IMG/VR virus record: IMGVR_UViG_3300027782_000066
Location: 15,303-79,302 of that record
DNA: 64,000 nt
Reading direction: 5' to 3' (one strand)
From: a virus
Within the stretch, counting starts at the first letter, position 1, and every line of letters starts with the position of its first letter. The translations under genes were made by a program, and so were the position numbers. This document shows, in pieces, positions 4,501 to 49,057 of this stretch. The notes under the pieces were generated by a model. The model did not search any database. It was not told the DNA's origin and saw nothing but the letters and a program-made list of their open reading frames with translations.

Positions 4501-7500
4501 TTAGCTATAATACCAACTCCGTTTCTCAAGGTAGAGATCGTGTTATCTCTAATCAAGGAAAACTTCCTGCCTGGTTGACTGATAATGCTCCTGTTATTGT
4601 TAAATCAAACGTAGGTGCTACTGTTCCAACTAACGTTGGATTTACTCCAAATACTTATGCTTGGTATAATAAGTACTTTACAAGAGGTGTTCAAGAAGCA
4701 ATTACTAACGTAACTTCGTTTAGTGGTGGTATTAGTGGAACTACTCTTACAGCAACTACAATGACCTATGGCGCTCTGCAAGTAGGTCAAGAAGTAACTG
4801 GAACTGGTGTAACTGCTGGTACATTCATCACTTCATTTGTCACTGGTACTGGTCAAAATAACGGTGGTACTTATACCGTTAATATTTCACAAACTGTTGC
4901 TGGCGGCACAACTTTAGTTGCATATCAAAAATCAGAAATGGCAACTTCAGGTAAAGGTGAATTTGGTATTTCAATTGTGCAGAATGGTCAACCCATTGAC
5001 TTCGGTGGCAGTCCAACTCCTGGTACTTCAACAGCGACTGCTCCTGCTAAGTTCTTCTGCACAAGAATTGTAGAAAATCTATATTCCAACTCGTTCTTCC
5101 TACCATTCCACGGCGGCACTATTGGACAAAGAACAAATTATGTAACTGGCGCATTTGCTGGATCTACTGATACATCACCTGTTCTCCCAGTAGCAACAGG
5201 ATATCCAAAACCAGCATTTGATTATGTAACTGACCGTTATAACATTAGGTGGCCAAGAATCAGTCTGTTTATGTCACAGACAGGTACTGCTGGACAAGGT
5301 ACTACAACCTTTACTGGTAACGTTTGGGGTACTGGTAACGTAGCATATTCTTCAATGCCTGTTGCTGCTGGTGGTGCTACTAACGCAATTTCTTCAGGTT
5401 CTGCTGGTGTTCTCGGAACAACCAAGTATAATATGGTTCCAGTAACCAATGATATCTTCAAGATTACTCAAACTGGTACTTCATTCCTACCAACAGGTCA
5501 ACCAACAATTCAATTTACAATTAACTCTTCACAATCAATTTCTTATGGTGCGTTCAACAACGCAACTGTAGGTACAAGAGGTACTTCATCTGCTGGTGGT
5601 CCTTTAGGTGTAACAGCGTTTAAGTTTGCTACAACTTCTTCTGCTAAAATTCCTAACTCCAATAGTAACAGAATTATTGTTCCTATTCAGAAAATGTCAT
5701 TCTTAGAGAATGATCTGGTACGTTATGATACAAGTGGTGGTACTGAAATTGCTAGTTCATTTACTGGTATTTCAGGTCTTCAAAATGGACAAGTTTATTC
5801 CATTAAGAACGTTTCATTAAAAACTCCTATTGCAACTTCATTAAATACAGCAAGAACATTAAGCGCAACTGCAACTGTATTTGATCTTGATACCAGCGTT
5901 ACTGAAGTATTTACTGGTTCTATTGCAGGTAATACTTTAACTGTAACTGCAGTAACTACAGGAGTACTTCAAGTTGGTATGGTTATTACTGGTACTGGTA
6001 TTACTGCTGGTACTGTTGTAACTGCATATGGTACAGGTCTTGGTGGTGTTGGTACTTATACTGTCAATGGTCAATCACAAACAGTATCTTCCACAACAAT
6101 TCAAGGTATCACGTCAGTTAATATTCTAGCAGGTGATATTCTTCAAATTGGTACTGATGGTATTGAACAAGTTTTCGTACTTCCTCCTGCAACATTTACT
6201 GCAACAATTTCTGGCACTACTTTAACAGTATCTGCTGTATCTGGAACTCTTGCAGCAAACCAATTAATTACAACTTCTGGACTTACCTCAAATCCATTAC
6301 AAACTGTTGTTGATAATACTACGATTGTAAGTCAGAGTAGTGGTACTCCTGGTGGTGTTGGTGTTTATGTAATCAACAATGCTCAAACAATTTCAACTGC
6401 AACTAATATGACTGCTTCTTCTGGAGGCAATCAAATTACTGTAACCAGAGGTTATGGTGGTACAATTCCCACAATTATTCCAGAAGGAACACCAATTTAT
6501 AAACTCTACGGTTCATTCCAATTGTACTCACAAGTACTTCTGCAACCAAGAGCACTTGGTTTTGGTATTACTCTTGGGCAGATTGATGCTACCAATATGA
6601 TCTTCCACTTTGGTGGTACTGTAGCTTCTTCTGGTACTCCAAGAGCACATAACCTGCGTACTGGAGATCCATTGCTTCTGTCATCTGGTGGTGGTGGTAT
6701 TGTTGATCCATTTACTGGTAATACTATTACTACTGGCATAACAGTTTTTGCTATTGTACTTACTGACTTTGCATTCAAGATTGCTCCTACAAGAGAAGCA
6801 GCATTCTCTGACTTCTCAATGACCATTACAAACGTTGCTACATCATTCACTACAATTGTAGATACAATTCCTCTGAAGTCATATGTAAATATCTCTGATG
6901 TCACACATAAACTTCTGAACGTTTCTTCTACTGGTTCTATTGACGGTCCTTATAATGCATCTTCCGTAACCACAAGAAAAGTTAATCTGAGACCACAAAC
7001 AAATACATCTCTGACAATTAATGCTAGAGATTTAACATTCAACCCAGCAAAAACTCTTAACCAAAAAACAGGTCAGTTCTTGTATGGCGGTCACGGATTT
7101 TCAACTGGTTCGAGAGTAATCTACTCTAGAAATAATAATCCATTTGAGATTGGTAGAGAGAGGCAAAAGAATTATCAGATTAATAACGTAACTAGAGTAC
7201 AGCAGGCAACTGCAACTGGTACTCCTGGACTTGCAACTCTGACATTCACTGCACCACACGGTCTGACGATTGGTCAAATTTATCAAGCACAATACATCAA
7301 TATTGATGGTACTGGTGCTACAACTGAAACGTTTGATGCTGTAAGTGTTCCTGTATACGTTAGTTCAACAACTCAAGTTCAATACATCAGTCCTATTTCA
7401 AACAGTGTAGTAGGTTCTACAAGTGTAACTGGTACGATGTCTTTGAGAGGAACTAATCATCCTCAGCTTGGTTATAATGCACTTTATGATCTTGATCTGA

Positions 7501-10500
7501 CTGCTGCTCCTTCAGGAAACGGCGCAACCGTAACTTATACCTTTGCAAATACATATGAAGAAGCTTTCGCAGTTGGTGATAGTGTAAACGTAACTGGTGT
7601 TCTGGTTGCTGGTAGCACTACTAATGGATACAATGGAACCTTCAAGGTTACTAATTGTACTACTACAACTGTTACTGTAACAAATACAACAACTGGTGGT
7701 TCACCTTCAATTACTGCTACTGGATGTTCTGTAAGAGGTACTTATTATGTAATCAGAGATAGCTTTGATCTGTTCCGTCTTGCAAGAACAAAAGCAAATT
7801 CTTTTGCTGGTATTGCAATTGCTAACTACTCTACAACTGGTTCTAACCAGATTGTACCAGCACAATTCAATATTCACACAATTCAAAGAACTTCTGGTGT
7901 AACTACAGTTACAACTGGTCAGCAGAATGGTGGGGTACTTGGTCACAACTTAGTAATTGGTATGGTTTATAATGCATCATTCATTGATATCAACTGCGGT
8001 GGTGCTTATATTTCTGGTTCTACTGTAGTTCCTTATAACTCAATGAATGCAAGTAATATACAAATTACTGTAACTACAACTACTCAGTTTACATATTCCA
8101 ATCCTGGTCCTGATATTCCATCAACAAACATTGGTACTACCAATACACCAATTCTTGGTACAATGACCATTTCTGGTGTAAATGAAACTGGACATAAACT
8201 GATTTCATTCCAAGTAGCTGGTGAAACGATGGGTAATGGTACTGCTACCATTAACTCTAAGGATGCTCTCCTGACTGATCCAACTAGTACATCAAACAAT
8301 ATTAGACCAGCGACTGAAAGAATTGTTCTCACTTCACACGGGTTCCAAACTGGTGATCGTGTTATCTATCGCGTATGGGCGAATGGTACTCCAATTCTTG
8401 GTCTGGCTAATGGTGGTGAATATTATATCAATAACACAGTCAACCAAATTTCATCAGGTCCTTTGGTTCGTGGTGGTACTGAAAGTGGTCAAACTGCTAA
8501 CCAGTTCTCACTTCACAACTCTTGGGTGGGTGCTTATACAAACACTGACCTAGTTGATATTCTTGGTGGTGGTACTGGTAACGTACACCAATTCAAGATT
8601 TCTAACCCAACATTGAAAGGAACAACATATAAAGGCGAGTGGTCTTCAGGAGATAACTATTTCTACGGCGATATTGTTCTTTTCCGTAGTCAGTATTTTA
8701 TGTCTAATAATGGTGTAGTTACTACTGCTGGTACTTTTGCTAATAACAACCAACAGCCTGTAAGAAATGATGGTTTATTTAATAATAACTGGCAAGAAGT
8801 TCCAAACCTTCCCGCATACTCTTCAAGATTCCTTGCTCAGTATAAAGGTGGTGATATACTGAAACTTAGTAATACAGTTCCTTCAAGAACCGTACCATTT
8901 GCATTCAGTGCTGTATCAACAACAACTGGTATCTTTAGTGTAAGTAGTCACAGATTAACAACTGGTGATGCTGTAATCTATCGTGTAAATGCTGCTGGTG
9001 GTAACAATAGTAATGCATCAACACTTTCTAACATTTATGGTCAAGTTAATGGTACTGGTGATTTCCCGATGAAACCACAGGCAGGAAATAATTCTGCCAC
9101 AAATAATGATAAACTAATTGCTGATTATGTTTACTATGTAAACGTACTTGATACTTCAAACTTTACTCTGCATACATCACTATCTGGTGCTATTGCTGGT
9201 CAATCTTACACTTCAACAGCACTTAATACAATCTCTGGTGCTGGTTTCACATTCTCTAGTGTTTCTGGTTCTAGAACTGCTGCTGGTCTTGTAAGTATCA
9301 CAACTGGTGCTCACGGTTTACAAATAGGTGCTACTTACCTTGCTTCTATCAACGTTGATACTGCTGGTTTTGAAAACTATGATGCTTATAATGTAACGAT
9401 CAACGTACCTAGCTCTACGGTAATTACATATCAAACAAACATTCTGAGTGCAAACTCAGGTACAATCACTGGTACATTCCGTCTGATTGATCAAACTGAT
9501 CTGGTTGTTCCTGGAGCACCGACTAATACTGTAGCATATAATGGTCTTGGTTCTTATCATAGACTTGAAAAACTTGAAGGGCAAGTTTACGAACCAATTA
9601 TTATTGCGGTTAATAGTGATACTGAAATGGTTATCACTGATCCATACCCATCCAGACAGTTCACCTTCAACCCTCAAGGTACATTTAATTCACCATCAGG
9701 TACTCAGTTACCAAATGTTAACTTAACGAATGGTGATTTTTATATTCCATCTCACGGAATTATGACTGGTACTAAAATGTACTATTCTCCTGGTTTAAAT
9801 ATTGGTATCAGACTTGGTAATATAACTGCTGGTGGTACTTATTATGCAATTAAAATTAATGATGATGTAATTCGCCTTGCTACATCACTTTCTGATGCTC
9901 TCTTAATGGTTCCAGTTATCCCAACTAACACTGGCGCTGGTTTCTATCACTATATCGTAGTTGCAACTCCTGCTGGTTCTACAAATATTCGTTATAATAC
10001 AAGTGGAGCTCTAATTGGAGATACTCAGGGTTCTGGTACTCAGTTTGCGGGTATCGCATCTTCAAACTATTATAGTAGTCAAACTTCTGCTAATATCAGT
10101 CCTGGTGTTCTTCAAGGTTTGAATTTCCTTTATCCTACCAGTGTTTATGCAAGAGCAAATTGCATCAATCTTCACAGACCATTTGATGGTGGTGTTGAAC
10201 TTCAAAATGCTAAGAACCCACAGACACAAGTTATCCGTCAGACACGTAAATACTTCCGTTATCAGTCTGGTAAAGGTCTGCAATATTCTAGTGGTATTAA
10301 CTTCAGTCCATCAATTGATGTTTCATACATCACACACGATGGAACTACATATGCAACTCTTGTTAGCAGAAAAGCTCATAACTTCTCCGCTGGTAATAGA
10401 ATTAAAGTTGAAGGTGTGGCAGTAACAAGTGGTGTTGCAACTCCTTATACAAATCCAGCAAACGGTCTATACTTTACCGTATTTGATACTCCTGATGAAT

Positions 10501-15273: not shown

Positions 15274-15923
15274 TGGCACAATTTAATAAGGTATTACAAA
15301 CTTTTCTTGGTCAACAAAAATCACTTTATGAAGTGATGATGCTTGCCAATAAAGATGGAGACCCAATTAACCAAGCAAATCCACTTCATGTTTCTCTGGG
15401 AGCAGAAAGTATTACAATTACTGGTTCTGCAGGAAGTTTTTATTCCTTCAACAATCACGCAACAAATACAAATCGTGGTTGGACTATGGATGATACAATG
15501 AGACCTGTAATCAGTATTAGAGTGAATAGTTCTGGAACTACTACATCAGACTTGACAGAAATTACAGAATATGAAATTGGAAATAATAATGCAAGTCAAA
15601 GCACTATCATCTATGAGTGGTATGAGGGTGATATTAATATTGCTGGAGCAGCAATTCCTGCTTGGAATTCACTAGGAACAAAATTACAATATAGAATATA
15701 TCAAGATAAGTATAGTAGTAATGCAGGAAATACCTTCACACAAAATAGTTCTGTTATGAGACATAGTGGAGTTATTATTGGAAAAAATACTTCTGGTGAT
15801 GAAGGACCATCAACTATGCATGGTGGAGCATCTCCAAATATGCTTACACTTTGTATGAAAAGAGTTGATAACTCAACAAAATTAGATGTTTGGTTTGCTT
15901 TTACTTGTAAGGAATTATTATGA
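15273..15923 (+). CDS. Hypothetical protein (probably virion-associated)
   Basis: 216-aa ORF translationally coupled to both neighbours. Confidence 0.7.
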   Translation: MAQFNKVLQTFLGQQKSLYEVMMLANKDGDPINQANPLHVSLGAESITITGSAGSFYSFNNHATNTNRGWTMDDTMRPVISIRVNSSGTTTSDLTEITEYEIGNNNASQSTIIYEWYEGDINIAGAAIPAWNSLGTKLQYRIYQDKYSSNAGNTFTQNSSVMRHSGVIIGKNTSGDEGPSTMHGGASPNMLTLCMKRVDNSTKLDVWFAFTCKELL

Positions 15924-36581: not shown

Positions 36582-37292
36582 ATGAAAACCTATAGAGATT
36601 TGAAATTAACTCTGCGTTATCATAATACTCTTAATTCTAAGTTCTGGGTTGGTGAGGCAATTAAGCCAGAAGTCAGAGAAGCATTATTGAAAATTGCTGA
36701 CGAGTGGGCACGGTTTGCTAACATTCCACTTCACGCTATTCAAGATGTAATCTTGGTTGGCGGTAATGCTAACTATAATTACACCAAGTATTCTGATTTA
36801 GATCTTCATCTATTAGTAAGGAAAGAAGAGATTGCTAACTGTCCAGAATTAATTGATGATTATCTTCAGGATAAGAAGCAACTGTGGGCATTAACTCATA
36901 ACATTCAAATCTATGGGCACGATGTAGAATTATATGCTCAGGATTTATCTGCACCAACTCCATCAGGTCAAGGAGTATTCTCACTTCAAAGTAGTTTGTG
37001 GTTAATCCGTCCCGTATATCAAGAAGTTAATTTATCTGATCCAGCAATCACTGCTAAAGTGAAACAGTATATGGATAAGATTGATTTTCTTATTCAGAAC
37101 AAAGCAGATGACCGTGATGCTTTTGAAAAGTTGAAAGAAAAAATTCGTGAAATGAGAGCATCCTCAATTCAACGTGGTGGAGAATTTGCTGTAGAAAATC
37201 TTGTATTCAAAGAACTTCGTAACAGAGGATACTTAGATAAACTCAGTCAGCATTTGAAAAGTCTTAAGGTAACGAGCTTGTCATTGAACTAA
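36582..37292 (+). CDS. Pol-beta-superfamily nucleotidyltransferase-like protein
   Basis: VILVGGNANYNYTKYSDLDLH (G[GS]-x-DxD signature) and a downstream acidic strand (HDVELY). Confidence 0.75.
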   Translation: MKTYRDLKLTLRYHNTLNSKFWVGEAIKPEVREALLKIADEWARFANIPLHAIQDVILVGGNANYNYTKYSDLDLHLLVRKEEIANCPELIDDYLQDKKQLWALTHNIQIYGHDVELYAQDLSAPTPSGQGVFSLQSSLWLIRPVYQEVNLSDPAITAKVKQYMDKIDFLIQNKADDRDAFEKLKEKIREMRASSIQRGGEFAVENLVFKELRNRGYLDKLSQHLKSLKVTSLSLN

Positions 37293-40425: not shown

Positions 40426-41436
40426 ATGAGTTTTTTAAACAATGTTATTAAAGAGTTAGACAATCCATACGCAAATGTTGTGGATGATTCAACTGTATGT
40501 AAGACGTTTGTTGATACTGGGTCTTACATACTCAATGCTCTTATCAGTGGGAGCATATTTGGTGGTCTCCCATCAAATAAAATCACTGCACTTGCGGGAG
40601 AATCTGGTACAGGTAAAACTTTCTTTGCTCTCTCCATCGTCAAGCACTTTCTTGATAGCAACCCAGAAGCACAAGTAATCTATTTTGAATCTGAATCAGC
40701 TATCGAAAAGGATATGCTTGGTGTTCGTGGTATTGATATTAAACGTGTTGGTTTAGTTCCTGTTACTACGGTACAAGAGTTTCGCACTCAAAGTATTAAA
40801 GTAGTCGATGAATATATGAAACTTAAGAAAGAAGTTAGACCTCCGCTGCTTTTTGTGCTAGACTCCTTAGGTATGCTCTCTACTACTAAAGAGGTTCAGG
40901 ATGCTACCGATGGTAAGGAAACTAAAGACATGACCCGTGCTCAGGTTATCAAATCCATCTTTCGTATTCTTTCACTCAAGTTGGGTCAAGCAGAAATTCC
41001 TTTGATTGTTACAAATCACACATACGATGTGGTTGGTGCTTATGTACCAACTAAAGAAATGGGTGGCGGCAGTGGTCTAAAGTATTCAGCATCGTCTATT
41101 CTTTTTCTTTCCAAGAAGAAGGAGAAAGATGGCACTGAAGTTATTGGCAACATCATTAAAGTGAAGGCACATAAGTCACGCTTTACAAAAGAAAATTCCA
41201 TTATTGAAACGAGGTTATACTATGATGCAAGAGGTCTCGACAAGTATTACGGGTTGGTCGAACTTGGAGCAAAGCACGGAGTATTTGAACCTGTGGGTAA
41301 CCGTGTTAAGGTGGGGGATATCACTGTATATCCTTCGGTCATTTATAAAGATCCTGATAAGTATTTCACTCCAGAAATCCTCCAAGCACTTGACGAATGT
41401 GCCCGAAAAGAATTCTCCTACGGATCTGAATCTTGA
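40426..41436 (+). CDS. uvsX: RecA-like recombinase UvsX
   Basis: GESGTGKT; DSLGML; MGGGSGLKY. Confidence 0.97.
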
Positions 41437-42818
41437 TGGAAACGATTGAAAGTACAATTCTGAAGAACCTCGTTTCTAACGAGAGTTATATGCGTAAGGT
41501 AGTACCTTATATCAAGGGTGAATACTTTACGCAGTATTCTGATAAGATTATGTTTGATATTATTTCAGACTTTGTAGTTTCATATGGTCAATGTCCTACT
41601 AAGGAAGTTCTACAGATTGAAGTAGAGAATCGTAAGGATTTGAATGAAGATTCTTATAAGGAGTTACAAATCAAGATTGATGATATCAGCAACACTGAAG
41701 TAGATTTTCAATGGATGTTGGATTCTACTGAGAAGTGGTGTAAGCAGAGAGCAGTATATCTTGCACTTCTTGAGAGTGTAAAGATTGCAGACGGCAAGGA
41801 TAAGAACCGTACTGAAGATGCCATTCCAAGTATTCTTCAGGAAGCACTTGCTGTATCATTTGATGAACATATTGGTCACGATTATATTGAAGATTTTGAA
41901 AAACGATTTGAATACTATCACCGAAAGGAAAATAAAATTCCGTTTGATTTAGAACTCTTCAATAAGATTACCAAAGGTGGTCTGCCTAATAAGACATTGA
42001 ATGTTGCCCTCGCTGGTACTGGTGTGGGTAAATCATTGTTTATGTGTCACTGTGCTGCTGCTGCGCTCACCGAAGGTAAGAATGTTTTATACATTACTTT
42101 GGAGATGGCAGAAGAAAAGATTGCTGAACGTATTGATGCTAATCTTCTCAATGTCAATATCAAAGACATTGAGGATATGCCAGAACAATTGTTCAGTAGT
42201 AAGATTACAAGACTAGCACAGAAAACTTCAGGGAAACTTATTGTTAAAGAGTATCCAACTGCATCTGCTCACTCTGGGCATTTCAAAGCACTTCTTAATG
42301 ATCTTTCAATGAAGAAAAATTTCAAACCAAATTTAATCTTTATTGATTATCTGAACATCTGTTCCTCGTCTAGATATAAAGGATCATTGGTTAATTCTTA
42401 TACCTATGTTAAAGCAATTGCAGAGGAACTTAGAGGGTTGGCTGTGGAGTTCAATGTCCCCATTATGTCTGCTACTCAAACTACTCGTAGTGGTTATGGT
42501 AGTACTGATGTTGACCTTACCGACACTTCTGAATCCTTCGGTCTTCCTGCTACTGCTGACTTTATGTTTGCTCTTATAAGCACTGAAGAATTAGAAAACC
42601 TTAATCAGATTATGGTTAAGCAACTGAAGAACCGTTACAACGATCCTACTATATTCAAAAGATTTGTGGTGGGTATTGACAGAGCGAAGATGAGGTTGTA
42701 TGATGTAGAACAATCTGCTCAGAAGGACATTGGCGATTCTGGGCAGCAATATGACTTTGAGGAAGTTGCCAAAACTCAAAGTACTTCAAAGGCAAAACTA
42801 ACCGATTTTAAATTTTAA
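41436..42818 (+). CDS. gp41: Replicative helicase gp41
   Basis: AGTGVGKS; TLEMAEE; IDYL; SESFGLPATAD; KQLKNRY. Confidence 0.98.
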   Translation: METIESTILKNLVSNESYMRKVVPYIKGEYFTQYSDKIMFDIISDFVVSYGQCPTKEVLQIEVENRKDLNEDSYKELQIKIDDISNTEVDFQWMLDSTEKWCKQRAVYLALLESVKIADGKDKNRTEDAIPSILQEALAVSFDEHIGHDYIEDFEKRFEYYHRKENKIPFDLELFNKITKGGLPNKTLNVALAGTGVGKSLFMCHCAAAALTEGKNVLYITLEMAEEKIAERIDANLLNVNIKDIEDMPEQLFSSKITRLAQKTSGKLIVKEYPTASAHSGHFKALLNDLSMKKNFKPNLIFIDYLNICSSSRYKGSLVNSYTYVKAIAEELRGLAVEFNVPIMSATQTTRSGYGSTDVDLTDTSESFGLPATADFMFALISTEELENLNQIMVKQLKNRYNDPTIFKRFVVGIDRAKMRLYDVEQSAQKDIGDSGQQYDFEEVAKTQSTSKAKLTDFKF

Positions 42819-42821
42819 TCT

Positions 42822-43226
42822 ATGACTATTGATTTGGATAAGTATGTTCAATTTGTTGGTGCTGTTACCAGTCCAGCATCCCGTAATACCACAGAGTTTG
42901 TTGATCGCATTCTTGAATTGAAAGATCAAGGTGCTGACATTCAACGTCTGCTTACTGCTGCTTGTGGTATTACTGCTGAGGGCGGAGAGTTTACTGAGAT
43001 TGTAAAGAAGATTGCATTTCAAGGAAAACCTTATAATGAAGATAATGTCTATCATATGAAGCGGGAACTTGGAGATATTATGTGGTACATTGCTCAAGCG
43101 TGTATTGCTCTTGATATGTCATTTGAAGAGATTGCTCAGATGAACTTTGATAAGTTGAATGCACGATACCCAGAAGGAACGTTCAGTATTGAACGAAGTG
43201 AGAACCGAGTAACTAATGATATCTAA
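42822..43226 (+). CDS. mazG: MazG-like NTP pyrophosphatase
   Basis: AEGGEFTEIVKK...ELGDIMWY...KLNARYP. Confidence 0.93.
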   Translation: MTIDLDKYVQFVGAVTSPASRNTTEFVDRILELKDQGADIQRLLTAACGITAEGGEFTEIVKKIAFQGKPYNEDNVYHMKRELGDIMWYIAQACIALDMSFEEIAQMNFDKLNARYPEGTFSIERSENRVTNDI

Positions 43227-43254
43227 TAAATACCCCCTATAAGGGGGATTTTTT
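43225..43254 (+). promoter_or_regulatory. Late-promoter-like AATAAATA adjoining a terminator-like hairpin
   Basis: AATAAATA at 43225-43232; CCCCCT-ATA-AGGGGG then ATTTTTT. Confidence 0.6.
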
Positions 43255-44601
43255 ATGGCTAGATCTGGAAAGGAGGCGTGGGAAAAATATTTTAAAGGAC
43301 AAGAAGTACAAACTACTGTTAAGGCAAATAGCAAATCCAGTGCTAGTACTAATAACCTTAATGTAGGTAGTTCTAAAACTAAATTAGAACATGGAACACC
43401 GATCACTGTTTTTGGTGGAGATGAATATAAAGCACAATTAGGTGTGCGATTAAAGGATGGTACATATGGTTTCTTACCTCTTACCAGTATTCAGAAACCT
43501 ACAGAGCAAAAAGTAAGATATAATATTGAGGCATATAAGTTAATTCAACTTGGTAAAAAAGAAAAACGAATGTACAATGGAGTTGAGTATGACTTCAGAG
43601 TATTTAAAACTTCGGAAGAATTAGCAAAATCAATTCTTCACGGACTAGAAAATGAACCATCGGTTCCTGAATATCTTGTTGAGCAAATGTTTGAATTTTT
43701 TTATGAGAACGTTGAAGGTGATGTCTCTAAGATAAATTGGAATGCTAATGTTTTAGGTGGTGATAAAACTGAAATTGGAAAATATATTGGTGAGTTACTT
43801 CCTGGATTTTTAATTTTATCTAAGAAATTTTCTGCCTTTAGTCAGCAAGATTTTATTTACACTGGTTCTCTTCCAGAATATATTGTACCAGAAGATCCAT
43901 CATTCTCTGGTGTTGATAGTATGTTTGATTATAGAGAAGTTCAAAAAGATGGAGGTATTTCTGCCATCTCAAGTAAGTATGGTGTTGGTGCTAAAGCATC
44001 ATTCTGGTCTAATATTATGCCAGAAGTACTTAAGTATCCAGATAAATTTTCTAAAATGTCTAGAGATTCTACAATAAAAAGATTAATTTCTATTGCTAGT
44101 AACTATAATAATGTAGAAAGATCTGGTAGAAGTATTGTATTTCAATATGGAATGGAATATTTTCTGGGAGATTTAGTTCACAATCCAGAAGATATTTACA
44201 AAAAGATAGCAGCAAATACTACAAAGGTAGATCCTGATGTTGCATCAGTTTCTCGTACAGCAAAAAATAAATTAAGTGTATTAAATAGTAGTGTATATAA
44301 AGAAACTTCTGCACCAGTTTTACTTCGTAATTTAAAAGGTGGTAAGTCACTGACATCTATATTTTCTCGTGCAATTGCTGATGAATTGAATGCTGATAAT
44401 AAAACTATTGCAGCAATTAAAGAACTGGTATCTGGTAAAAATTTCTTTCAACTCAATTTAGATGAAAGTAAATTTAAGAGAGGACAAATTTATTTTAATG
44501 TTAAAAAATCATCTGCTGTACAAATTACATTCACTGGAACAAAAGCAGCGACTAATGATATTGCAGCAAAACAAGGAACAGTAAATTACTTATTAAATTA
44601 A
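43255..44601 (+). CDS. Hypothetical protein, putative PD-(D/E)xK-type nuclease with N-terminal SH3-like domain
   Basis: KYIGE helix ... GVDS ... AISSK arrangement; weak motif-level evidence. Confidence 0.45.
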   Translation: MARSGKEAWEKYFKGQEVQTTVKANSKSSASTNNLNVGSSKTKLEHGTPITVFGGDEYKAQLGVRLKDGTYGFLPLTSIQKPTEQKVRYNIEAYKLIQLGKKEKRMYNGVEYDFRVFKTSEELAKSILHGLENEPSVPEYLVEQMFEFFYENVEGDVSKINWNANVLGGDKTEIGKYIGELLPGFLILSKKFSAFSQQDFIYTGSLPEYIVPEDPSFSGVDSMFDYREVQKDGGISAISSKYGVGAKASFWSNIMPEVLKYPDKFSKMSRDSTIKRLISIASNYNNVERSGRSIVFQYGMEYFLGDLVHNPEDIYKKIAANTTKVDPDVASVSRTAKNKLSVLNSSVYKETSAPVLLRNLKGGKSLTSIFSRAIADELNADNKTIAAIKELVSGKNFFQLNLDESKFKRGQIYFNVKKSSAVQITFTGTKAATNDIAAKQGTVNYLLN

Positions 44602-45809
44602 TGGCAAACATAGTAAAACTAAAACATCTTGAACATTTAGAAGATGAAGTTCTGAATTATGGTTCGGAAGGATGTTTTGCTATTGTTAGATTTCTTACCG
44701 AACTCAAAGATATGATTGGTAAGAAATCAACAGGAGGATTTCTACAGACAAAATGGGATGGAGCACCTTCAGTAGTTTGTGGTATGGACCCAATGACTGG
44801 TGGATTTTTTGTAGGAACTAAATCAGTATTCAATAAGAAAGATCCAAAGATTTGCTACACAGAGGGTGACATTGACGGTATGTATGAGGGTGAGTTAAAT
44901 AAAAAACTTAAAGATTGTTTAAACTATTTCTCTCAACTTGGTATCAGTGGTGTCATTCAAGGGGACCTTCTATACACTAGTGATAAAAAAACCCAAAGAA
45001 TAAATGGTGAAGAACTAATTATATTCAGACCTAATACAATTACTTATGCTATCCCAACTGATCATCCGATTGGTCAAAAAGTCAATAGATCTAAAATTGG
45101 AGTGGTTTTTCATACTCATTATGCTGGCGGCCCTGATCTTGCAGATATGTCTGCAAGACCTCGCGTGGATATTTCAAAGTTTAGTTCTGTTGATGATGTT
45201 GCCGTTATCTCTAATGATACGCAGGTACAGAAAGTATCGTTTACGCAATCAGAAGAACAAACATTCGACAGATACATTCAACGAATAAACAGAATGTGTG
45301 AGATTTCTGCATCATTCCACGACTATATTGTAGAAAATTCTGGTACTACTGGTGATGCAAAATTTTTTGTTGGGTCTTATATCAAACCATTTTTCAATAA
45401 TGAAATTAAGGAAGCAAGAACTATTACTAATGTTGATGCTACTCTAAAATCGTTTGCTGAATTTTATAAAGCAAAGATGGATAAAGAAATCTCCTCAGTT
45501 AAAACTGCAGCAGCACAGACAAAGAAGCGTGAATTTTTCTACACTGGTGTTAAATACTTGGAAGATAATGTAAAAGAATTCAAAGCATTTGTGGCACTTT
45601 ATAAAACTATTCAGGAAGCAAAGTTATTCATCATCTCAAAATTGGACTCACTTGAACAGTTCAGAACTTTTGTTGAGATTGACGGTGGGTATAAAGTTAC
45701 TACTCCCGAAGGTTATGTTCTCCACCAAGATGGAGATATGGTGAAATTAGTTAATCGTATTGAGTTCAGTAAAAACAATTTCACTATAGAAAAAAACTGG
45801 AAAAAATGA
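44601..45809 (+). CDS. Conserved phage protein (DUF6267-like) with ligase-type covalent nucleotidyltransferase motifs
   Basis: KWDG (K51), IQGDLL, EGYV (E370), VKLV: the order of ligase motifs I, III, IV and V. Confidence 0.6.
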   Translation: MANIVKLKHLEHLEDEVLNYGSEGCFAIVRFLTELKDMIGKKSTGGFLQTKWDGAPSVVCGMDPMTGGFFVGTKSVFNKKDPKICYTEGDIDGMYEGELNKKLKDCLNYFSQLGISGVIQGDLLYTSDKKTQRINGEELIIFRPNTITYAIPTDHPIGQKVNRSKIGVVFHTHYAGGPDLADMSARPRVDISKFSSVDDVAVISNDTQVQKVSFTQSEEQTFDRYIQRINRMCEISASFHDYIVENSGTTGDAKFFVGSYIKPFFNNEIKEARTITNVDATLKSFAEFYKAKMDKEISSVKTAAAQTKKREFFYTGVKYLEDNVKEFKAFVALYKTIQEAKLFIISKLDSLEQFRTFVEIDGGYKVTTPEGYVLHQDGDMVKLVNRIEFSKNNFTIEKNWKK

Positions 45810-46378
45810 GCCTCATAGAATATAAAAGTTGTTACTTCACATTCGGTAGATTTCAACCCTGCACCACAGGTCATGCAGATAACTTTGCGAACCTGAAAAA
45901 GATTGCTGGTAGTAATGATTATCGTATTTACATCAGTCAGTCAGTAGATGCTAAAGGTAATAATCCTTTACCTCCCGATGTTAAACTTAGCTATATGAAT
46001 AAGTCATTACCAGAACATCGTGGTAAAATATTCAGTAGTGCTAGTACCAATTCTCATGTGAGTATCCTACAGGAACTACAATCTCTTGGGTATGATAATG
46101 CATATTTTGTAGTTGGATCTGATAGAGTTGCAAAATTTCAATATATAAAACAATATAATGGTAAGGACTTTGTATTCAATGAACTTGATATAATTTCCTC
46201 TGGTGATCGTGATGCTGATGGTGATGGTTTTGCTATATCTGGAACTAAAATGAGAAGAGCAGCATTTGCTGGTGACTTCAAAACCTTCAGAACTGGTATT
46301 CCTACAGCACTAACTGATCCTGACTGCAAGAAACTTATGAAAGAAATTGCATCTAAATTGCCCACAAACTTTAAATAA
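45806..46378 (+). CDS. Cytidyltransferase-like (HxGH-class) nucleotidyltransferase
   Basis: FTFGRFQPCTTGH; NPL; VVGSDRV; ISGTKMR. Confidence 0.85.
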   Translation: MSLIEYKSCYFTFGRFQPCTTGHADNFANLKKIAGSNDYRIYISQSVDAKGNNPLPPDVKLSYMNKSLPEHRGKIFSSASTNSHVSILQELQSLGYDNAYFVVGSDRVAKFQYIKQYNGKDFVFNELDIISSGDRDADGDGFAISGTKMRRAAFAGDFKTFRTGIPTALTDPDCKKLMKEIASKLPTNFK

Positions 46379-46386
46379 AATTCCCA

Positions 46387-47118
46387 ATGAAAAAATTAAC
46401 ATTTGACGACGCTAAAAATAATAAAATATTTACTATCATTGAAAAGAATGGTGATAGTAAATATATTAATTTGATTGAAGATGCATATGAGAAAGCAAAA
46501 AAATATGAAAGTAAACTTCCAGAATGGGTTATTACTATGGAAGGAATGTCTGGCGTTCAGTACAGACACTTCATCAATAACTTATTTGAGAACATTGAAA
46601 CCTCTGACTACCTTGAAATAGGATGCTGGAAGGGGTCTACAACCTGCTCTGCCACTTATAAAAATTCAGTTAAGGCATATTGTATTGATAACTGGAGAGA
46701 GTTTGGTGGACCCAAAAATGAATTCTTAAGTAACATTCAGAGATGTATGAATGAAAGTGACGGTAAATGTGATATTCAATTGGTTGAAAATGATTTCAGA
46801 AGATTGGAATATAATAACATCGGTAAGTATAATGTGTATATGTTTGATGGTCCACATTCATTAGATGATCAGAGAGATGCATTAATATTTGCTAAGGATG
46901 CACTTGAGGATGAATTTATTTTTATTTGTGATGACTGGAATTGGGGTCATGTAAGAGAAGGTACTATACAAGGATTAGAACAATCTAATATGGAAGTAAT
47001 TTATTCAATTGATCTTAGAACTACTCCTGACAATACTACTTGCACTCACGAGAATGGATATGAAAGAAGTGACTGGCACAACGGCTATTATATTTCAGTA
47101 GTTAAAAAAATTAAATAA
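46387..47118 (+). CDS. Class I SAM-dependent methyltransferase (Methyltransf_24-like)
   Basis: YLEIGCWKGST; CIDNW; FDGPH; ICDDWNW. Confidence 0.85.
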   Translation: MKKLTFDDAKNNKIFTIIEKNGDSKYINLIEDAYEKAKKYESKLPEWVITMEGMSGVQYRHFINNLFENIETSDYLEIGCWKGSTTCSATYKNSVKAYCIDNWREFGGPKNEFLSNIQRCMNESDGKCDIQLVENDFRRLEYNNIGKYNVYMFDGPHSLDDQRDALIFAKDALEDEFIFICDDWNWGHVREGTIQGLEQSNMEVIYSIDLRTTPDNTTCTHENGYERSDWHNGYYISVVKKIK

Positions 47119-47144
47119 ATATAATATCTCTTAATTCAGTATTA

Positions 47145-48197
47145 ATGTATAATTTTTCTGAATACTCCACAAAAATTTATATGCGTGAGAAGTATTACAA
47201 CGGTGAAGTGTTCCCAGAAGGAATGAAAGTAAGAAATAATAGCGATAGAGTAGGTGTTATAATTCGTCGTGGACCTAATTATGTTATCTGCTTGGGAGAA
47301 GATCAGAAAACTTTTAGGAGTTGGATTTCTGATATTAGTGAGGTCCACGAACTAGGTACTGATGAAACGAGAGAATATCTACAATCAATAACTCCCAATC
47401 AAAAAGTTGAGAGGTATGGCAAAACCAAGACCCCTAAGCATACTACTATGATAAATAATAAAAAAGGTACTTACAAGGAAATGTTTAACGATAGTTTTTC
47501 TAAATCTTTGATTGAAAGATCTGCCAATGGAATTGGCGGCACAGATTGTTTTGGGGAGGTTGAGAATAAGCAGGAAGTTACAACCGAGTATAATAATTCC
47601 TTGATGCAAAGTGCAGTAGAGCATATTACGTCAGGTAAATTGTTTGAGGCTAAGAATAAAAAAGGTAAAGAGCAAGGTGCTGATGGCAAAGCTTGCTGGG
47701 ATGGTTATAAGTATGCTGGTACTGAGAACGGTAAAGATAAGTGTGTCAAGGTAGAAGGGTATGGTACTAAGAAAAAAACTGAAGCATTAGATCCTGTCGG
47801 CAAAGAAGATGGTGATGTTGATAATGACGGTGATACTGATAACTCTGATAAGTATCTGAAGAAGCGTAGGGCAGCAATCTCTAAATCAGTTAAGAAAGAA
47901 AATTTTTCTGATTGGAGATCTGAACTTAATGAAAAATGTAATTATACTGAAGAAGGTGTGGAATGCCCTGAGCACGGCAAGGATGCCTGCTCAACAGTTA
48001 AGGAAGCAGATTGTGGTTGTGGCACTCCTTCAAAGATGAAGAAGGAAGAAGCTTTAACTAAAGGTGAAACTGACAAGAAAGAAAAAATTGTTCGTTCAAT
48101 GAAAAAAAATCTTAAGGATTTTAAATCACGCTATGGAGAGCGTGGTAAATCAGTTATGTACGCTACTGCCACGAAAATGGCAAAGAATGATAAATAA
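47145..48197 (+). CDS. Modular hypothetical protein/putative polyprotein
   Basis: N-terminal REKYYNGEVF...GVIIRRGPNYVI...FRSWISD module, then short Cys-rich, acidic and basic modules. Confidence 0.75.
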   Translation: MYNFSEYSTKIYMREKYYNGEVFPEGMKVRNNSDRVGVIIRRGPNYVICLGEDQKTFRSWISDISEVHELGTDETREYLQSITPNQKVERYGKTKTPKHTTMINNKKGTYKEMFNDSFSKSLIERSANGIGGTDCFGEVENKQEVTTEYNNSLMQSAVEHITSGKLFEAKNKKGKEQGADGKACWDGYKYAGTENGKDKCVKVEGYGTKKKTEALDPVGKEDGDVDNDGDTDNSDKYLKKRRAAISKSVKKENFSDWRSELNEKCNYTEEGVECPEHGKDACSTVKEADCGCGTPSKMKKEEALTKGETDKKEKIVRSMKKNLKDFKSRYGERGKSVMYATATKMAKNDK

Positions 48198-48223
48198 AAG
48201 CAAACCACATTAACGAGGTCACT

Positions 48224-48409
48224 ATGTCAATCGCAGCAATTTTCGCTTGGGCGACTGCCAACCAAGCACTTATCGCAACTGTTCTTTTCGCAGTTTCTGA
48301 AGCACTTGGAGCAAATCCAAAGATCAAGGCAAACGGTATTCTTTCGCTCATTCTTTTACAAGTCCAAGGACAACTAAAAGCAAAGGGTGCTAAAGACGTT
48401 ACGCCCTGA
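48224..48409 (+). CDS. Small membrane protein (holin-like?)
   Basis: 61 aa, two hydrophobic stretches, basic tail; GAGG RBS; GATAAATA upstream. Confidence 0.6.
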   Translation: MSIAAIFAWATANQALIATVLFAVSEALGANPKIKANGILSLILLQVQGQLKAKGAKDVTP

Positions 48410-48437: not shown

Positions 48438-48465
48438 ATGGGGGATTGCTATGTCCCCATTTTTT
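48438..48465 (+). terminator. Rho-independent terminator
   Basis: ATGGGG(G)A...TCCCCAT followed by a T-run. Confidence 0.7.
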
Positions 48466-48472
48466 ATAAATA
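48465..48472 (+). promoter_or_regulatory. T4-type late promoter
   Basis: TATAAATA. Confidence 0.85.
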
Positions 48473-48502: not shown

Positions 48503-49057
48503 ATGCCTCTCTGGGGAAAAAGTACAGGCGACGAGTCAAGACCTAAGTGGTTGAGACCAGAAGATCAACCAGCAAATAATCTTAACACCTGTTTTGCAGA
48601 TGCTCGTGGTTGGGTTATTAAACACGCCAATGGGTTTGAAGAAGTTATTGCTACTATTGGTGGTCTTGGTGGCGCTGGTTCTACTGACCTTTTAGGCAAT
48701 GCCACGATTGTTGGTGTTTACTTTGCTGCAAAAACTTATGCAAGGAATGCTACTGGCACAGTAACTGTTAATTATAATGAACTTGTTACCGCAACTTCGG
48801 GAGCAACTCTTGTTGTTACTGGATCTGTATCTGGCGCTATTACAGCAACTGCTGCTACACAAACAGGTGTTCAGCAAGTAGCATTTACATTCACAGTACC
48901 AAACACAGCACAAACACTTTCAATTGCTGCTCAGACAATCTCTGGCACTGTTGTTGATAAGGGCACAGCAACTGCTTCTGACAAGGTATTTGTTGCTGGT
49001 GATGTTATCAACACTGCTGCTGGTACAGGAACCGTAAAAACAATCGCTGTTGCATAA
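48503..49057 (+). CDS. Putative virion protein (Ig-like, A/T/G-rich C-terminus)
   Basis: MPLWG N-terminus, late promoter, beta-rich composition. Confidence 0.65.
   Translation: MPLWGKSTGDESRPKWLRPEDQPANNLNTCFADARGWVIKHANGFEEVIATIGGLGGAGSTDLLGNATIVGVYFAAKTYARNATGTVTVNYNELVTATSGATLVVTGSVSGAITATAATQTGVQQVAFTFTVPNTAQTLSIAAQTISGTVVDKGTATASDKVFVAGDVINTAAGTGTVKTIAVA

Follow-up and report, generated by a model that had tools for sequence, protein, structure and literature searches.

Systems that repair RNA, such as bacterial Pnkp/Hen1 and the Pnkp/Rnl1 repair of phage T4, bring together an enzyme of the ligase fold and enzymes that modify ends. A comparable assembly is found in a five-gene block (P1 to P5) of a T4-like cyanophage, one of a group of viruses through which a considerable fraction of marine cyanobacteria is turned over: the block encodes a ligase-like protein (P2) and a methyltransferase (P4), and relatives of the block add fusions to a kinase and to a Pol-beta nucleotidyltransferase. 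The likeness is partial, however. The window, by which we mean the whole 64,000-nucleotide stretch analyzed (positions 15,303 to 79,302 of IMG/VR record IMGVR_UViG_3300027782_000066), contains neither a Hen1-type methyltransferase nor a kinase, and end-healing domains of the HAD or metallophosphatase kind are absent from it too; the conservation of P2 with P3 does not extend to the methyltransferase P4, and the block is late, not early.

Taken singly, the proteins have closer counterparts. For P2, these are the RNA ligases Rnl2/REL1, Rnl5 (Naegleria NgrRnl), the ligase domain of Trl1 and T4 Rnl1, to none of which it shows detectable sequence similarity; in contrast to them, its helical domain sits as an insertion between motif IIIa and motif IV and is not appended, its motif III reads QGD and it carries an invariant N-terminal HLEHLED element. 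Unlike an ATP-dependent DNA ligase or a capping enzyme, P2 has no C-terminal OB domain, and no described Rnl family known to us has, as P2 has, an HxGH nucleotidyltransferase as its partner or fused domain. That partner, P3, has the GRFQPxxxGH and ISGTxxR motifs of NadR and the archaeal (MJ0541) NMNATs, its best solved relatives, but in its lineage Thr takes the place of the first HxGH histidine (TTGH; His in S-SZBM1 and Cr30), and its relatives carry a C-terminal beta-rich domain and occur in virions. The closest known enzymes to P1 would be the monomeric type IIP restriction endonucleases MspI, HinP1I and HhaI (PD-(D/E)XK). Lastly, the injected head proteins of T4 (Alt and the internal proteins) are likewise late-made enzymes or charged modular proteins found in virions; they have no homology to the block, and the likeness is seen in the proteomes of relatives.

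Organization and expression of the block

The host virus is a T4-like cyanomyovirus, as seen from the synteny of uvsX, gp41, mazG and gp61 and from best matches in Kyanoviridae; a megablast search with the region as query found, among phage records, nothing beyond one 164-nt match. Directly 3' of mazG (42822-43226), five contiguous plus-strand open reading frames extend over 43255-48197, in agreement with an earlier note on this DNA: P1 (43255-44601, 448 aa), with an SH3-like domain and a putative restriction-endonuclease-like body; P2 (44601-45809, 402 aa), a DUF6267 protein with an RNA-ligase-like fold; P3 (45806-46378, 190 aa), a short form of the cyanophage "cytidyltransferase" (CTase); P4 (46387-47118, 243 aa), a class I SAM-dependent methyltransferase (Methyltransf_24); and P5 (47145-48197, 350 aa), a mosaic. 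A plus-strand gene for a small hydrophobic protein of 61 aa follows (48224-48409), gp187-like and syntenic with the "gp187" genes of relatives. P1 and P2 overlap by one base (TAATG) and P2 and P3 by ATGA; because start and stop codons overlap, the translational coupling earlier claimed for the first three genes is possible.

TAAATA alone is a weak signal, with 75 occurrences on the plus strand of the window. ATAAATA occurs there 21 times and never on the minus strand, and of these 21, 14 fall between genes at a distance of 19-39 nt 5' of a start codon; starts preceded in this way include those of the tail sheath, tail tube, scaffold, major head protein and head-tail adaptor genes. The cyanophage late promoter has been published as NATAAATA (PMC2984593). 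Four late-type TAAATA sites had been proposed for the block, and two of them fit the pattern exactly, the late-promoter-like plus-strand motifs at 43226..43232, 23 nt 5' of the P1 start and overlapping the stop region of mazG, and at 47115..47121, 24 nt 5' of the P5 start. The site at 46372 was rejected as a late promoter, being TAAATA only, without ATAAATA, and just 10 nt from the P4 start. The remaining one sits inside P5 (plus strand, 47451-47457; feature 47451..47483), 24 nt 5' of the in-frame ATG of M113 (47481), a spacing identical to that of the validated late sites; it is a possible second late start, which would yield the virion-protein part of P5 without its CTase-derived domain. A further plus-strand ATAAATA at 48190 precedes the 61-aa gene (feature 48190..48409).

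Two plus-strand terminator-like hairpins, both previously missed, bracket the block. One (CCCCCTATAAGGGGG followed by T6; feature 43233..43253, hairpin 43233-43247) lies between mazG and P1; the other (hairpin 48441-48458 with T6; feature 48441..48472) marks the 3' boundary, and a canonical TATAAATA on the plus strand at 48465 precedes the virion structural gene that comes next (48503-49057; phrog_11617, "structural/head protein" genes in relatives). Altogether, nine such hairpins were found against 2.3 expected. The hairpin at 43233-43247 would block read-through from the replication genes into P1, while a transcript begun at the 43226 motif would start within the hairpin and so evade termination. 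Since the block is bounded by hairpins and has the ATAAATA that stands 5' of the sheath, tube, scaffold and capsid genes, its earlier assignment as late stands.

A ligase-like protein and its partner

P2 matches PF19782 (DUF6267; E 3e-124), and its AF2 model has a pLDDT of 91.9 and a pTM of 0.88. The eight best solved structural neighbors of the model are RNA ligases without exception (8/8), and the solved DNA ligases in the match list all score lower than these; recovering the ligase neighbors needed VIA-align wide, Foldseek against the PDB having returned only noise (carbonic anhydrase) and no ligase. The motifs KWDG, QGD, EGYV and VKL are present, and across 43 homologues with identities of 31-92%, K51, D53, D122, E370, G371 and K382 are invariant and G54, F142 and Y149 invariant or nearly so. 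P2 shares the nucleotidyltransferase-domain fold with solved ligases, and its motifs follow the ligase order, I-III-IIIa-IV-V, with the conserved residues on predicted beta-strands. It departs from the usual form in having Asp instead of Glu in motif III and one Lys plus R386 in motif V, in its helical insertion, which measures about 135 aa (about residues 214-350) and is unusual for ligases, and in its lack of motif VI along with the OB domain: after motif V (strand 379-384) comes only a helix (386-395), and the protein ends at 402.

Sequence comparison places P2 in no known RNA ligase family. Pfam gives only DUF6267 and NCBIfam nothing, phmmer and a profile search against the PDB found no ligase, and no sequence-level link of DUF6267 to any solved or curated ligase was found; in BFVD, there are weak matches to annotated phage RNA ligases. 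Because no ligase family profile or member matches, P2 forms a separate family of the same fold. The model, its structural neighbors and the invariant residues thus uphold, for fold and motifs, the earlier description of P2 as ligase-like. We assign it to the superfamily of covalent lysine nucleotidyltransferases (polynucleotide ligases), as a divergent member with ligase chemistry to be expected, and give the whole explanation to which this belongs about an even chance. A literature search found no paper mentioning DUF6267, though the family may have been named before. As a ligase-fold enzyme, DUF6267 was previously unrecognized, and a concrete and cheap biochemical test now becomes available.

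P3 matches PF01467 (23.3 bits against a gathering cutoff of 21) and phrog_3041. It contains FGRFQPCTTGH, with T12, F13, G14, R15, F16, G22 and H23 invariant, and, as a C-terminal ISGTxxR motif, AISGTKMRR, with S145 and R150 invariant. A P3 profile searched against solved proteins finds NMNATs first (NadR 6gye, E 8.6e-4; MJ0541 NMNAT, E 4.9e-3), then H. influenzae NadR (E 0.051) and TagD (E 0.83); the NMNAT models of NCBIfam all stay below their cutoffs, and the single sequences of P3 and P4 gave chance matches in the PDB (T-cell receptor chain, gelsolin). Judged by motifs and profile, P3 is a (T/H)xGH nucleotidyltransferase nearest to NadR and the archaeal NMNATs, at marginal E-values, and the HxGH type that had been ascribed to it is confirmed.

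In IMG/VR loci, P2 and P3 are fused in 2 cases and adjacent in 48, and they lie within 3.5 kb of each other in about 60 of 70; the linkage is also found in 74 MAG contigs. The latter 74 "genome" matches were considered as cellular homologues of DUF6267 and rejected: they are aquatic and gut MAG contigs of binned phage DNA, recognized as such because gp41- or mazG-type neighbors occur on most of those with enough flank. Fusions of P2 and P3 are seen in P0182, P0242, P0307, P0317, P0325 and a 591-aa protein of S-PM2, and DUF6267-nucleotidyltransferase fusions include gut-type contigs without cyanophage backbone genes (L141, L145, L148). One relative (L051) has an AAA_33/zeta-type P-loop kinase fused to the nucleotidyltransferase and, near DUF6267, a methyltransferase other than P4; in another (L043), the fusion is to a Pol-beta nucleotidyltransferase. 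Both fusion partners are of a repair type. With P2 as the query, tblastn matched 468 phage records, almost all of Synechococcus or Prochlorococcus phages, and clustering of the DUF6267 family at 50% identity leaves 2,384 representatives. The pair is thus carried by most T4-like cyanophages, with fused or adjacent pairs on gut-type contigs too, and in annotation a near-universal cyanophage gene still passes for a "domain of unknown function", the partner gene for a "cytidyltransferase" or a cell-wall enzyme. The coherent five-gene pathway of the earlier note found no support: co-occurrence of all five genes was not found in other genomes and is limited to P2 and P3 (about 60 of 70 loci). The cut, activate and seal chemistry proposed with it is a putative one.

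The CTase/NMNAT-like protein has been detected, together with its downstream neighbors, in virions of S-SZBM1, S-SCSM1, S-CBWM1 and S-CREM2 (PMC9146016, PMC9602691, PMC10665884). DUF6267 is absent from the virion protein lists of S-SZBM1 and S-CREM2, the two that were readable. Of the possible virion delivery suggested for the block, presence in virions of relatives is borne out for P3- and P5-type proteins and, in these two lists, not for DUF6267. Because the nucleotidyltransferase and P5-type proteins of relatives reach virions, some of the module probably enters the cell along with the DNA, and the repeated virion finds of the NMNAT-like protein gain a mechanistic frame from its ligase-fold partner.

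Favored and alternative explanations

The explanation that we favor, while holding it to be no better than a toss-up, is a late block with a conserved P2-P3 pair for nucleic-acid end joining or repair and with variable accessories. P2 would most likely self-adenylylate on K51 and then seal or adenylylate 5'-phosphate nucleic-acid ends; P3, adjacent or fused to it across hundreds of aquatic phages, would work together with P2, and P1, P4 and P5 would be lineage-specific accessories around the pair. Late expression counts against repair, as the T4 repair genes rnlA and pseT are early. The 79 kb of genome assembled showed no phosphatase for healing 3' ends, a kinase partner was seen in distant relatives only, and end joining gives no account of the part that an NMNAT-like P3 would play in it. 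A bolder version, in which P3 makes, or regenerates in place, a dinucleotide donor (NAD+ or a relative of it) with which P2 self-adenylylates and joins or caps nucleic-acid ends, would amount to an undescribed two-component ligation system of aquatic T4-like phages; we find it distinctly improbable. If true, it would supply the strand joining thought missing from cyanomyoviruses since the first genomes, with part of the ligation machinery coming preloaded in the virion. NadR and the archaeal NMNATs being the best solved relatives of P3, and both GRFQP...GH and ISGTxxR being present, P3 could instead be a true, virion-carried NMN adenylyltransferase that rebuilds or sustains NAD+ early in infection, for example against NAD+-depleting defenses, with DUF6267 either using that NAD+ as adenylate donor or adenylylating a target other than nucleic acid. 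The P-loop kinase fused to a relative's nucleotidyltransferase resembles the pairing in NadR, whose layout is kinase plus NMNAT domains; the fused kinase is, however, of the AAA_33/zeta type and need not be a ribosylnicotinamide kinase. While the authors of four virion proteomes propose an NAD+-supply role (PMC9602691, PMC10665884), the E-values linking P3 to NMNATs are marginal (8.6e-4 and worse) with no NCBIfam model at cutoff, the 79 kb revealed no partner, such as NAMPT, that would produce NMN, and the near-obligate linkage or fusion of P3 with a ligase-fold enzyme is left unexplained; on balance, we think this reading unlikely.

A ligase fold in DUF6267 also reopens the question of whether cyanomyoviruses truly lack a strand-joining enzyme. 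DUF6267 could be the "missing" joiner of the T4-like cyanophages, which lack a gene 30 ligase, serving DNA maturation by sealing nicks in replicated or concatemeric DNA before packaging, with the upstream nuclease trimming or resolving DNA. We consider this quite unlikely: P2 is without an OB domain and ends one helix past motif V, solved DNA ligases rank below RNA ligases among its structural matches, the nuclease in the upstream slot is not conserved, and the NMNAT-like partner and its virion association go unexplained. Finally, there may be no system at all, only a hyperplastic late region gathering unrelated accessory or virion-associated genes, where P2 and P3 are linked by ancestry and synteny and not by joint function. 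P1 and P4 are clearly not conserved parts and P5 is a mosaic, and because the same loci also preserve gp41, mazG and a gp189-like gene in synteny around the block, some of the P2-P3 linkage is inherited. Repeated DUF6267-nucleotidyltransferase fusions in distant lineages, gut-type contigs among them, argue against this, and the start/stop overlaps are hard to account for without functional coupling; that the block has no joint function is in our view very improbable.

Lineage-specific neighbors of the pair

P1 consists of an SH3-like N-terminal domain (about residues 14-84) and a putative restriction-endonuclease-like body (about 147-447) in which E180, D221, S239 and K241 are invariant. Its candidate catalytic signature, D221-X17-S239-x-K241, differs from PD-(D/E)XK in that the second acidic residue is Ser. 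The nuclease-like character noted before is supported for the fold, which appears MspI/HinP1I-like; Foldseek of P1 against the PDB gave SH3 matches only, and in the ESM Atlas the matches of P1 and P5 were confined to "hypothetical protein" clusters. In the slot 5' of P2, the P1 family occupies 1 of 80 loci and at least six other, mutually dissimilar families are found elsewhere; P1 is one of at least seven unrelated, interchangeable occupants, here nuclease-like, and this hypervariable slot may be where phages exchange accessory proteins. Among the slot families, the S-SZBM1-type family C is the sole remote homologue of P1 (96.9%, E 1.5e-10) and keeps P...D...SxK, and cluster 4 shares with P1 just the SH3 domain. 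The approximately 450-aa genes 5' of DUF6267 in S-WAM2 and P-RSM1 were rejected as P1 homologues, BLASTP and hhalign showing none; S-SCSM1_89 and S-SCSM1_90 were similarly rejected as DUF6267, the latter belonging to family B.

The methyltransferase assignment of P4 is secured by PF13578 (28.6 bits against a gathering score of 26.3; full-length domain 76-184). None of the 80 related loci contains P4, whose homologues in cyanophages sit elsewhere in their genomes; in L046 and L047, the CTase is followed by a P5-like gene without an intervening methyltransferase. From these arrangements, P4 is seen as a lineage-specific insertion into what other phages carry as one long nucleotidyltransferase gene, and it now parts the enzyme from what used to be its C-terminal domain. 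Residues 6-93 of P5 match the C-terminal domain of long cyanophage cytidyltransferases, and this N-terminal part of P5 is found in 377 phage records, mostly annotated inside "cytidyltransferase". P5 further matches residues 241-352 of S-SZBM1_140 (E 8e-9) and the downstream protein of P-RSM1 (E 2e-11). By its matches, P5 is a detached C-terminal domain of a long "cytidyltransferase" joined to virion-protein modules, as modular as had been supposed. The short conserved modules after this part are CWDGYK, LDPVGKEDGDVDNDG...YLKKRR, a stretch rich in Cys and one module at the C terminus, and P5 has all of them in common with proteins encoded 3' of the CTase in other phages.

A ligase-fold protein and its nucleotidyltransferase partner

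The best-supported reading of the five plus-strand genes behind mazG centres on two of them, P2 (DUF6267; 44601-45809) and P3 (a nucleotidyltransferase; 45806-46378), as a putative late, partly virion-borne pair for nucleic-acid end joining or repair with exchangeable accessories, and we give this reading about an even chance. The block directly follows uvsX (40426-41436), the gp41 helicase (41433-42818) and mazG (42822-43226), and on its 3′ side lie a small gene of 61 aa, a virion structural gene and, farther off, the gp61 primase; the source assembly is one 79.3-kb contig, and the genome is thus partial. All five ORFs described in the earlier note are present as claimed, and the overlaps are real, one base (TAATG) between P1 and P2 and ATGA between P2 and P3. 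A tblastn search with P2 reached 468 phage records, nearly all Synechococcus or Prochlorococcus myoviruses, and S-WAM2, P-RSM1 and S-SZBM1 are annotated with identical gene order.

In Pfam, P2 matches DUF6267 alone (E 3e-124), a family with 2,384 representatives at 50% identity; in PHROGs, it falls in a family of unknown function whose profile spans the cytidyltransferase, too. Residues H9, H12, K51, D53, K74, D122, F142, Y149, H171, T172, K341, E370, G371 and K382 are invariant in a 43-member alignment (31–92% identity). The AlphaFold2 model (pLDDT 91.9, pTM 0.88) found no match in the PDB with Foldseek; structural alignment against all representatives placed RNA ligases in the top eight positions, listed here with their two alignment values: Naegleria NgrRnl (5cot; 8.0, 181), Trypanosoma brucei REL1 (1xdn; 7.6, 192), fungal Trl1 (6n0t and 9r3w; 7.4, 189 and 194), T4 Rnl2 (2hvq and 1s68; 6.9 and 6.8, 178 and 176), the Candida glabrata Trl1 adenylyltransferase domain (9qw7; 6.8, 186) and T4 Rnl1 (9do4; 6.5, 162). 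In the model, the invariant residues fall on strands and succeed one another as ligase motifs should: I (K51xDG), III (QGD122), IIIa (F142/Y149), IV (E370-G-x-V) and V (K382), with a predicted helical domain of ~135 residues (~214-350) between IIIa and IV; the predicted structure has no OB domain. Our incomplete coverage of the literature returned no publication naming DUF6267 as ligase-like.

P3 scores above the PF01467 cutoff, carries the conserved motifs FGRFQPxTxGH and AISGTKMRR and is labeled "cytidyltransferase" in PHROGs. Its profile search was led by the NadR-type NMNAT 6gye (E 8.6e-4) and the archaeal NMNAT MJ0541 (E 4.9e-3), with TagD reaching only E 0.83; since NMNATs rank ahead of TagD, "NMNAT-like" seems, as far as sequence comparison goes, a fair description.

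Among the 70 IMG/VR loci with downstream sequence long enough to judge, the two genes are immediately adjacent in 48 and fused in 2, and a nucleotidyltransferase lies within 3.5 kb of DUF6267 in about 60. The linkage recurs in 74 contigs filed under "genomes." Almost all belong to aquatic or gut MAGs, and we take them for phage DNA because most of those with enough flank show gp41/mazG-type neighbours. Fusions of DUF6267 with the nucleotidyltransferase are recurrent across distant lineages, S-PM2 has one as well (a protein of 591 aa), and one protein (P0307) joins the NMNAT-like domain, DUF6267, a RimK-type ATP-grasp domain and a Zn-protease domain. Other fusion partners of the nucleotidyltransferase are an AAA_33/zeta-type P-loop kinase (L051, 7174-9915), a Pol-beta nucleotidyltransferase (L043, 7187-9169) and, often, a C-terminal DUF5824; RNA ligases in repair systems are usually accompanied by kinase and Pol-beta partners (PMC7824862).

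Against this record of adjacency and fusion, a shared neighbourhood alone, with no joint system, is the least probable of the other explanations. The sealing of DNA nicks in place of the gp30 ligase, which PMC2984593 states to be missing, we hold to be unlikely, with RNA ligases as the closest structural neighbours of P2. The provision of NAD+ by a true NMNAT agrees with the profile ranking of P3 and has the DUF6267 linkage to accommodate; it is doubtful, if somewhat less so than nick sealing. The end-joining or repair pair remains the reading that we prefer.

The cyanophage order of gp41, mazG, DUF6267, long cytidyltransferase and gp189-like gene was also seen on a 188-kb contig, the size of a T4-like phage, from the Nonlabens xiamenensis strain 1Q3 isolate (L091), probably a phage whose DNA was assembled along with that of the bacterium.

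Putative late promoters and hairpins

The cyanophage late promoter has been published as NATAAATA (PMC2984593). TAAATA carries little information as it occurs 75 times on the plus strand of the window; ATAAATA occurs 21 times on the plus strand and never on the minus strand, and 14 of the 21 sites are intergenic and 19–39 nt 5′ of a start codon, the genes behind such sites including the head-tail adaptor, tail sheath, tail tube, scaffold and major head protein. Of the late sites proposed earlier, those at 43226 (5′ of P1) and 47115 (5′ of P5) have the exact motif and spacing, while the one at ~46372 does not qualify and was rejected as a late promoter. A site at 48190, 5′ of the 61-aa gene, matches the intergenic set in motif and spacing, and the fourth of the sites proposed earlier, at 47451 inside P5, lies 24 nt 5′ of an in-frame ATG (M113), making an internal late start plausible.

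Immediately 3′ of the first motif, a terminator-like hairpin with a T-run (43233-43253) would stop read-through from mazG, and the late transcript would begin within it. The block looks like a dedicated late unit set into the replication gene region. A second such hairpin (48441-48464) is followed by a canonical TATAAATA, the whole within 48441-48472, so that the order differs, the motif being 5′ of the hairpin at the first place and 3′ of it at the second; such pairing may be a general insulation of late units within early and middle regions in this phage. The gene at 36582-37292, whose sole match is phrog_36119 of unknown function, has its own TATAAATA 19 nt upstream and is a second nonstructural gene with a late promoter in the replication region.

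Variable neighbours of the pair

The nuclease-like P1 (43255-44601) is not a conserved partner of the pair. Its sole tblastn match is Caulobacter phage Cr30, which alone among isolate phages has a clear homologue (gp073, 30% identity), with a cytidyltransferase 3 kb off (5001-6221 and 9347-10153); no DUF6267 was detected within the Cr30 stretch examined. Across 80 related loci (L006-L085), at least seven families of ~270–570 aa, unrelated in sequence, take the slot that separates mazG from DUF6267: leaving out reference sequences, family B occupies 20 loci, cluster 1 16, cluster 2 6, family C 4, clusters 4 and 5 3 each and the P1 family 1. Family C alone is remotely homologous to P1 (hhalign 96.9%, E 1.5e-10); cluster 4 has an SH3 domain in common with P1, and in certain families, an N-terminal SH3-like domain is the sole shared part. 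The slot has the look of a site for exchangeable accessories or effectors.

P4 (46387-47118), a Methyltransf_24 SAM methyltransferase, was found in none of the 80 loci, its cyanophage homologues are located in different genome regions, and in two loci (L046 and L047), a short cytidyltransferase has a full-length P5-like gene right behind it; together, these results mark P4 as a lineage-specific insertion. Given the distribution of P4 and the single locus with the P1 family, the five-gene pathway of the earlier note is unsupported, good as its gene-by-gene calls were. Elsewhere, a methyltransferase of a different family, two genes 5′ of DUF6267 (L051), is a weak hint of a recurrent methyltransferase association.

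Virion association and the mosaic P5

In relatives, virions contain the cytidyltransferase S-SZBM1_140 with S-SZBM1_139 (PMC9146016), S-SCSM1_89 to S-SCSM1_93, an NMNAT-like protein among them (PMC9602691), and S-CREM2 ORFs 154-156 (PMC10665884); S-CBWM1 is a further relative with a virion-associated NMNAT-like/cytidyltransferase protein (PMC10665884). S-SCSM1_90, placed in virions by mass spectrometry, belongs to slot family B. DUF6267 is not in the virion protein lists of S-SZBM1 or S-CREM2.

P5 (47145-48197) resembles the C-terminal domain of long cytidyltransferases at residues 6-93 (S-SZBM1_140 residues 241-352, E 8e-9), a domain mostly annotated within the "cytidyltransferase" gene (377 phage records), and the N-terminus of a P-RSM1 protein encoded 3′ of the cytidyltransferase at residues 208-250 (E 2e-11); its CWxGYK module resembles S-SZBM1_139. 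By these matches, P5 is a detached nucleotidyltransferase tail joined to downstream virion-protein modules. Within its conserved LDPVGKEDGD...YLKKRR module, residues 223-234 (47811-47846) read DVDNDGDTDNSD, a stretch that resembles the calcium-binding loops of dockerins or thrombospondins; the Atlas offered a weak lead to Dockerin (score 0.76, 32% of members).
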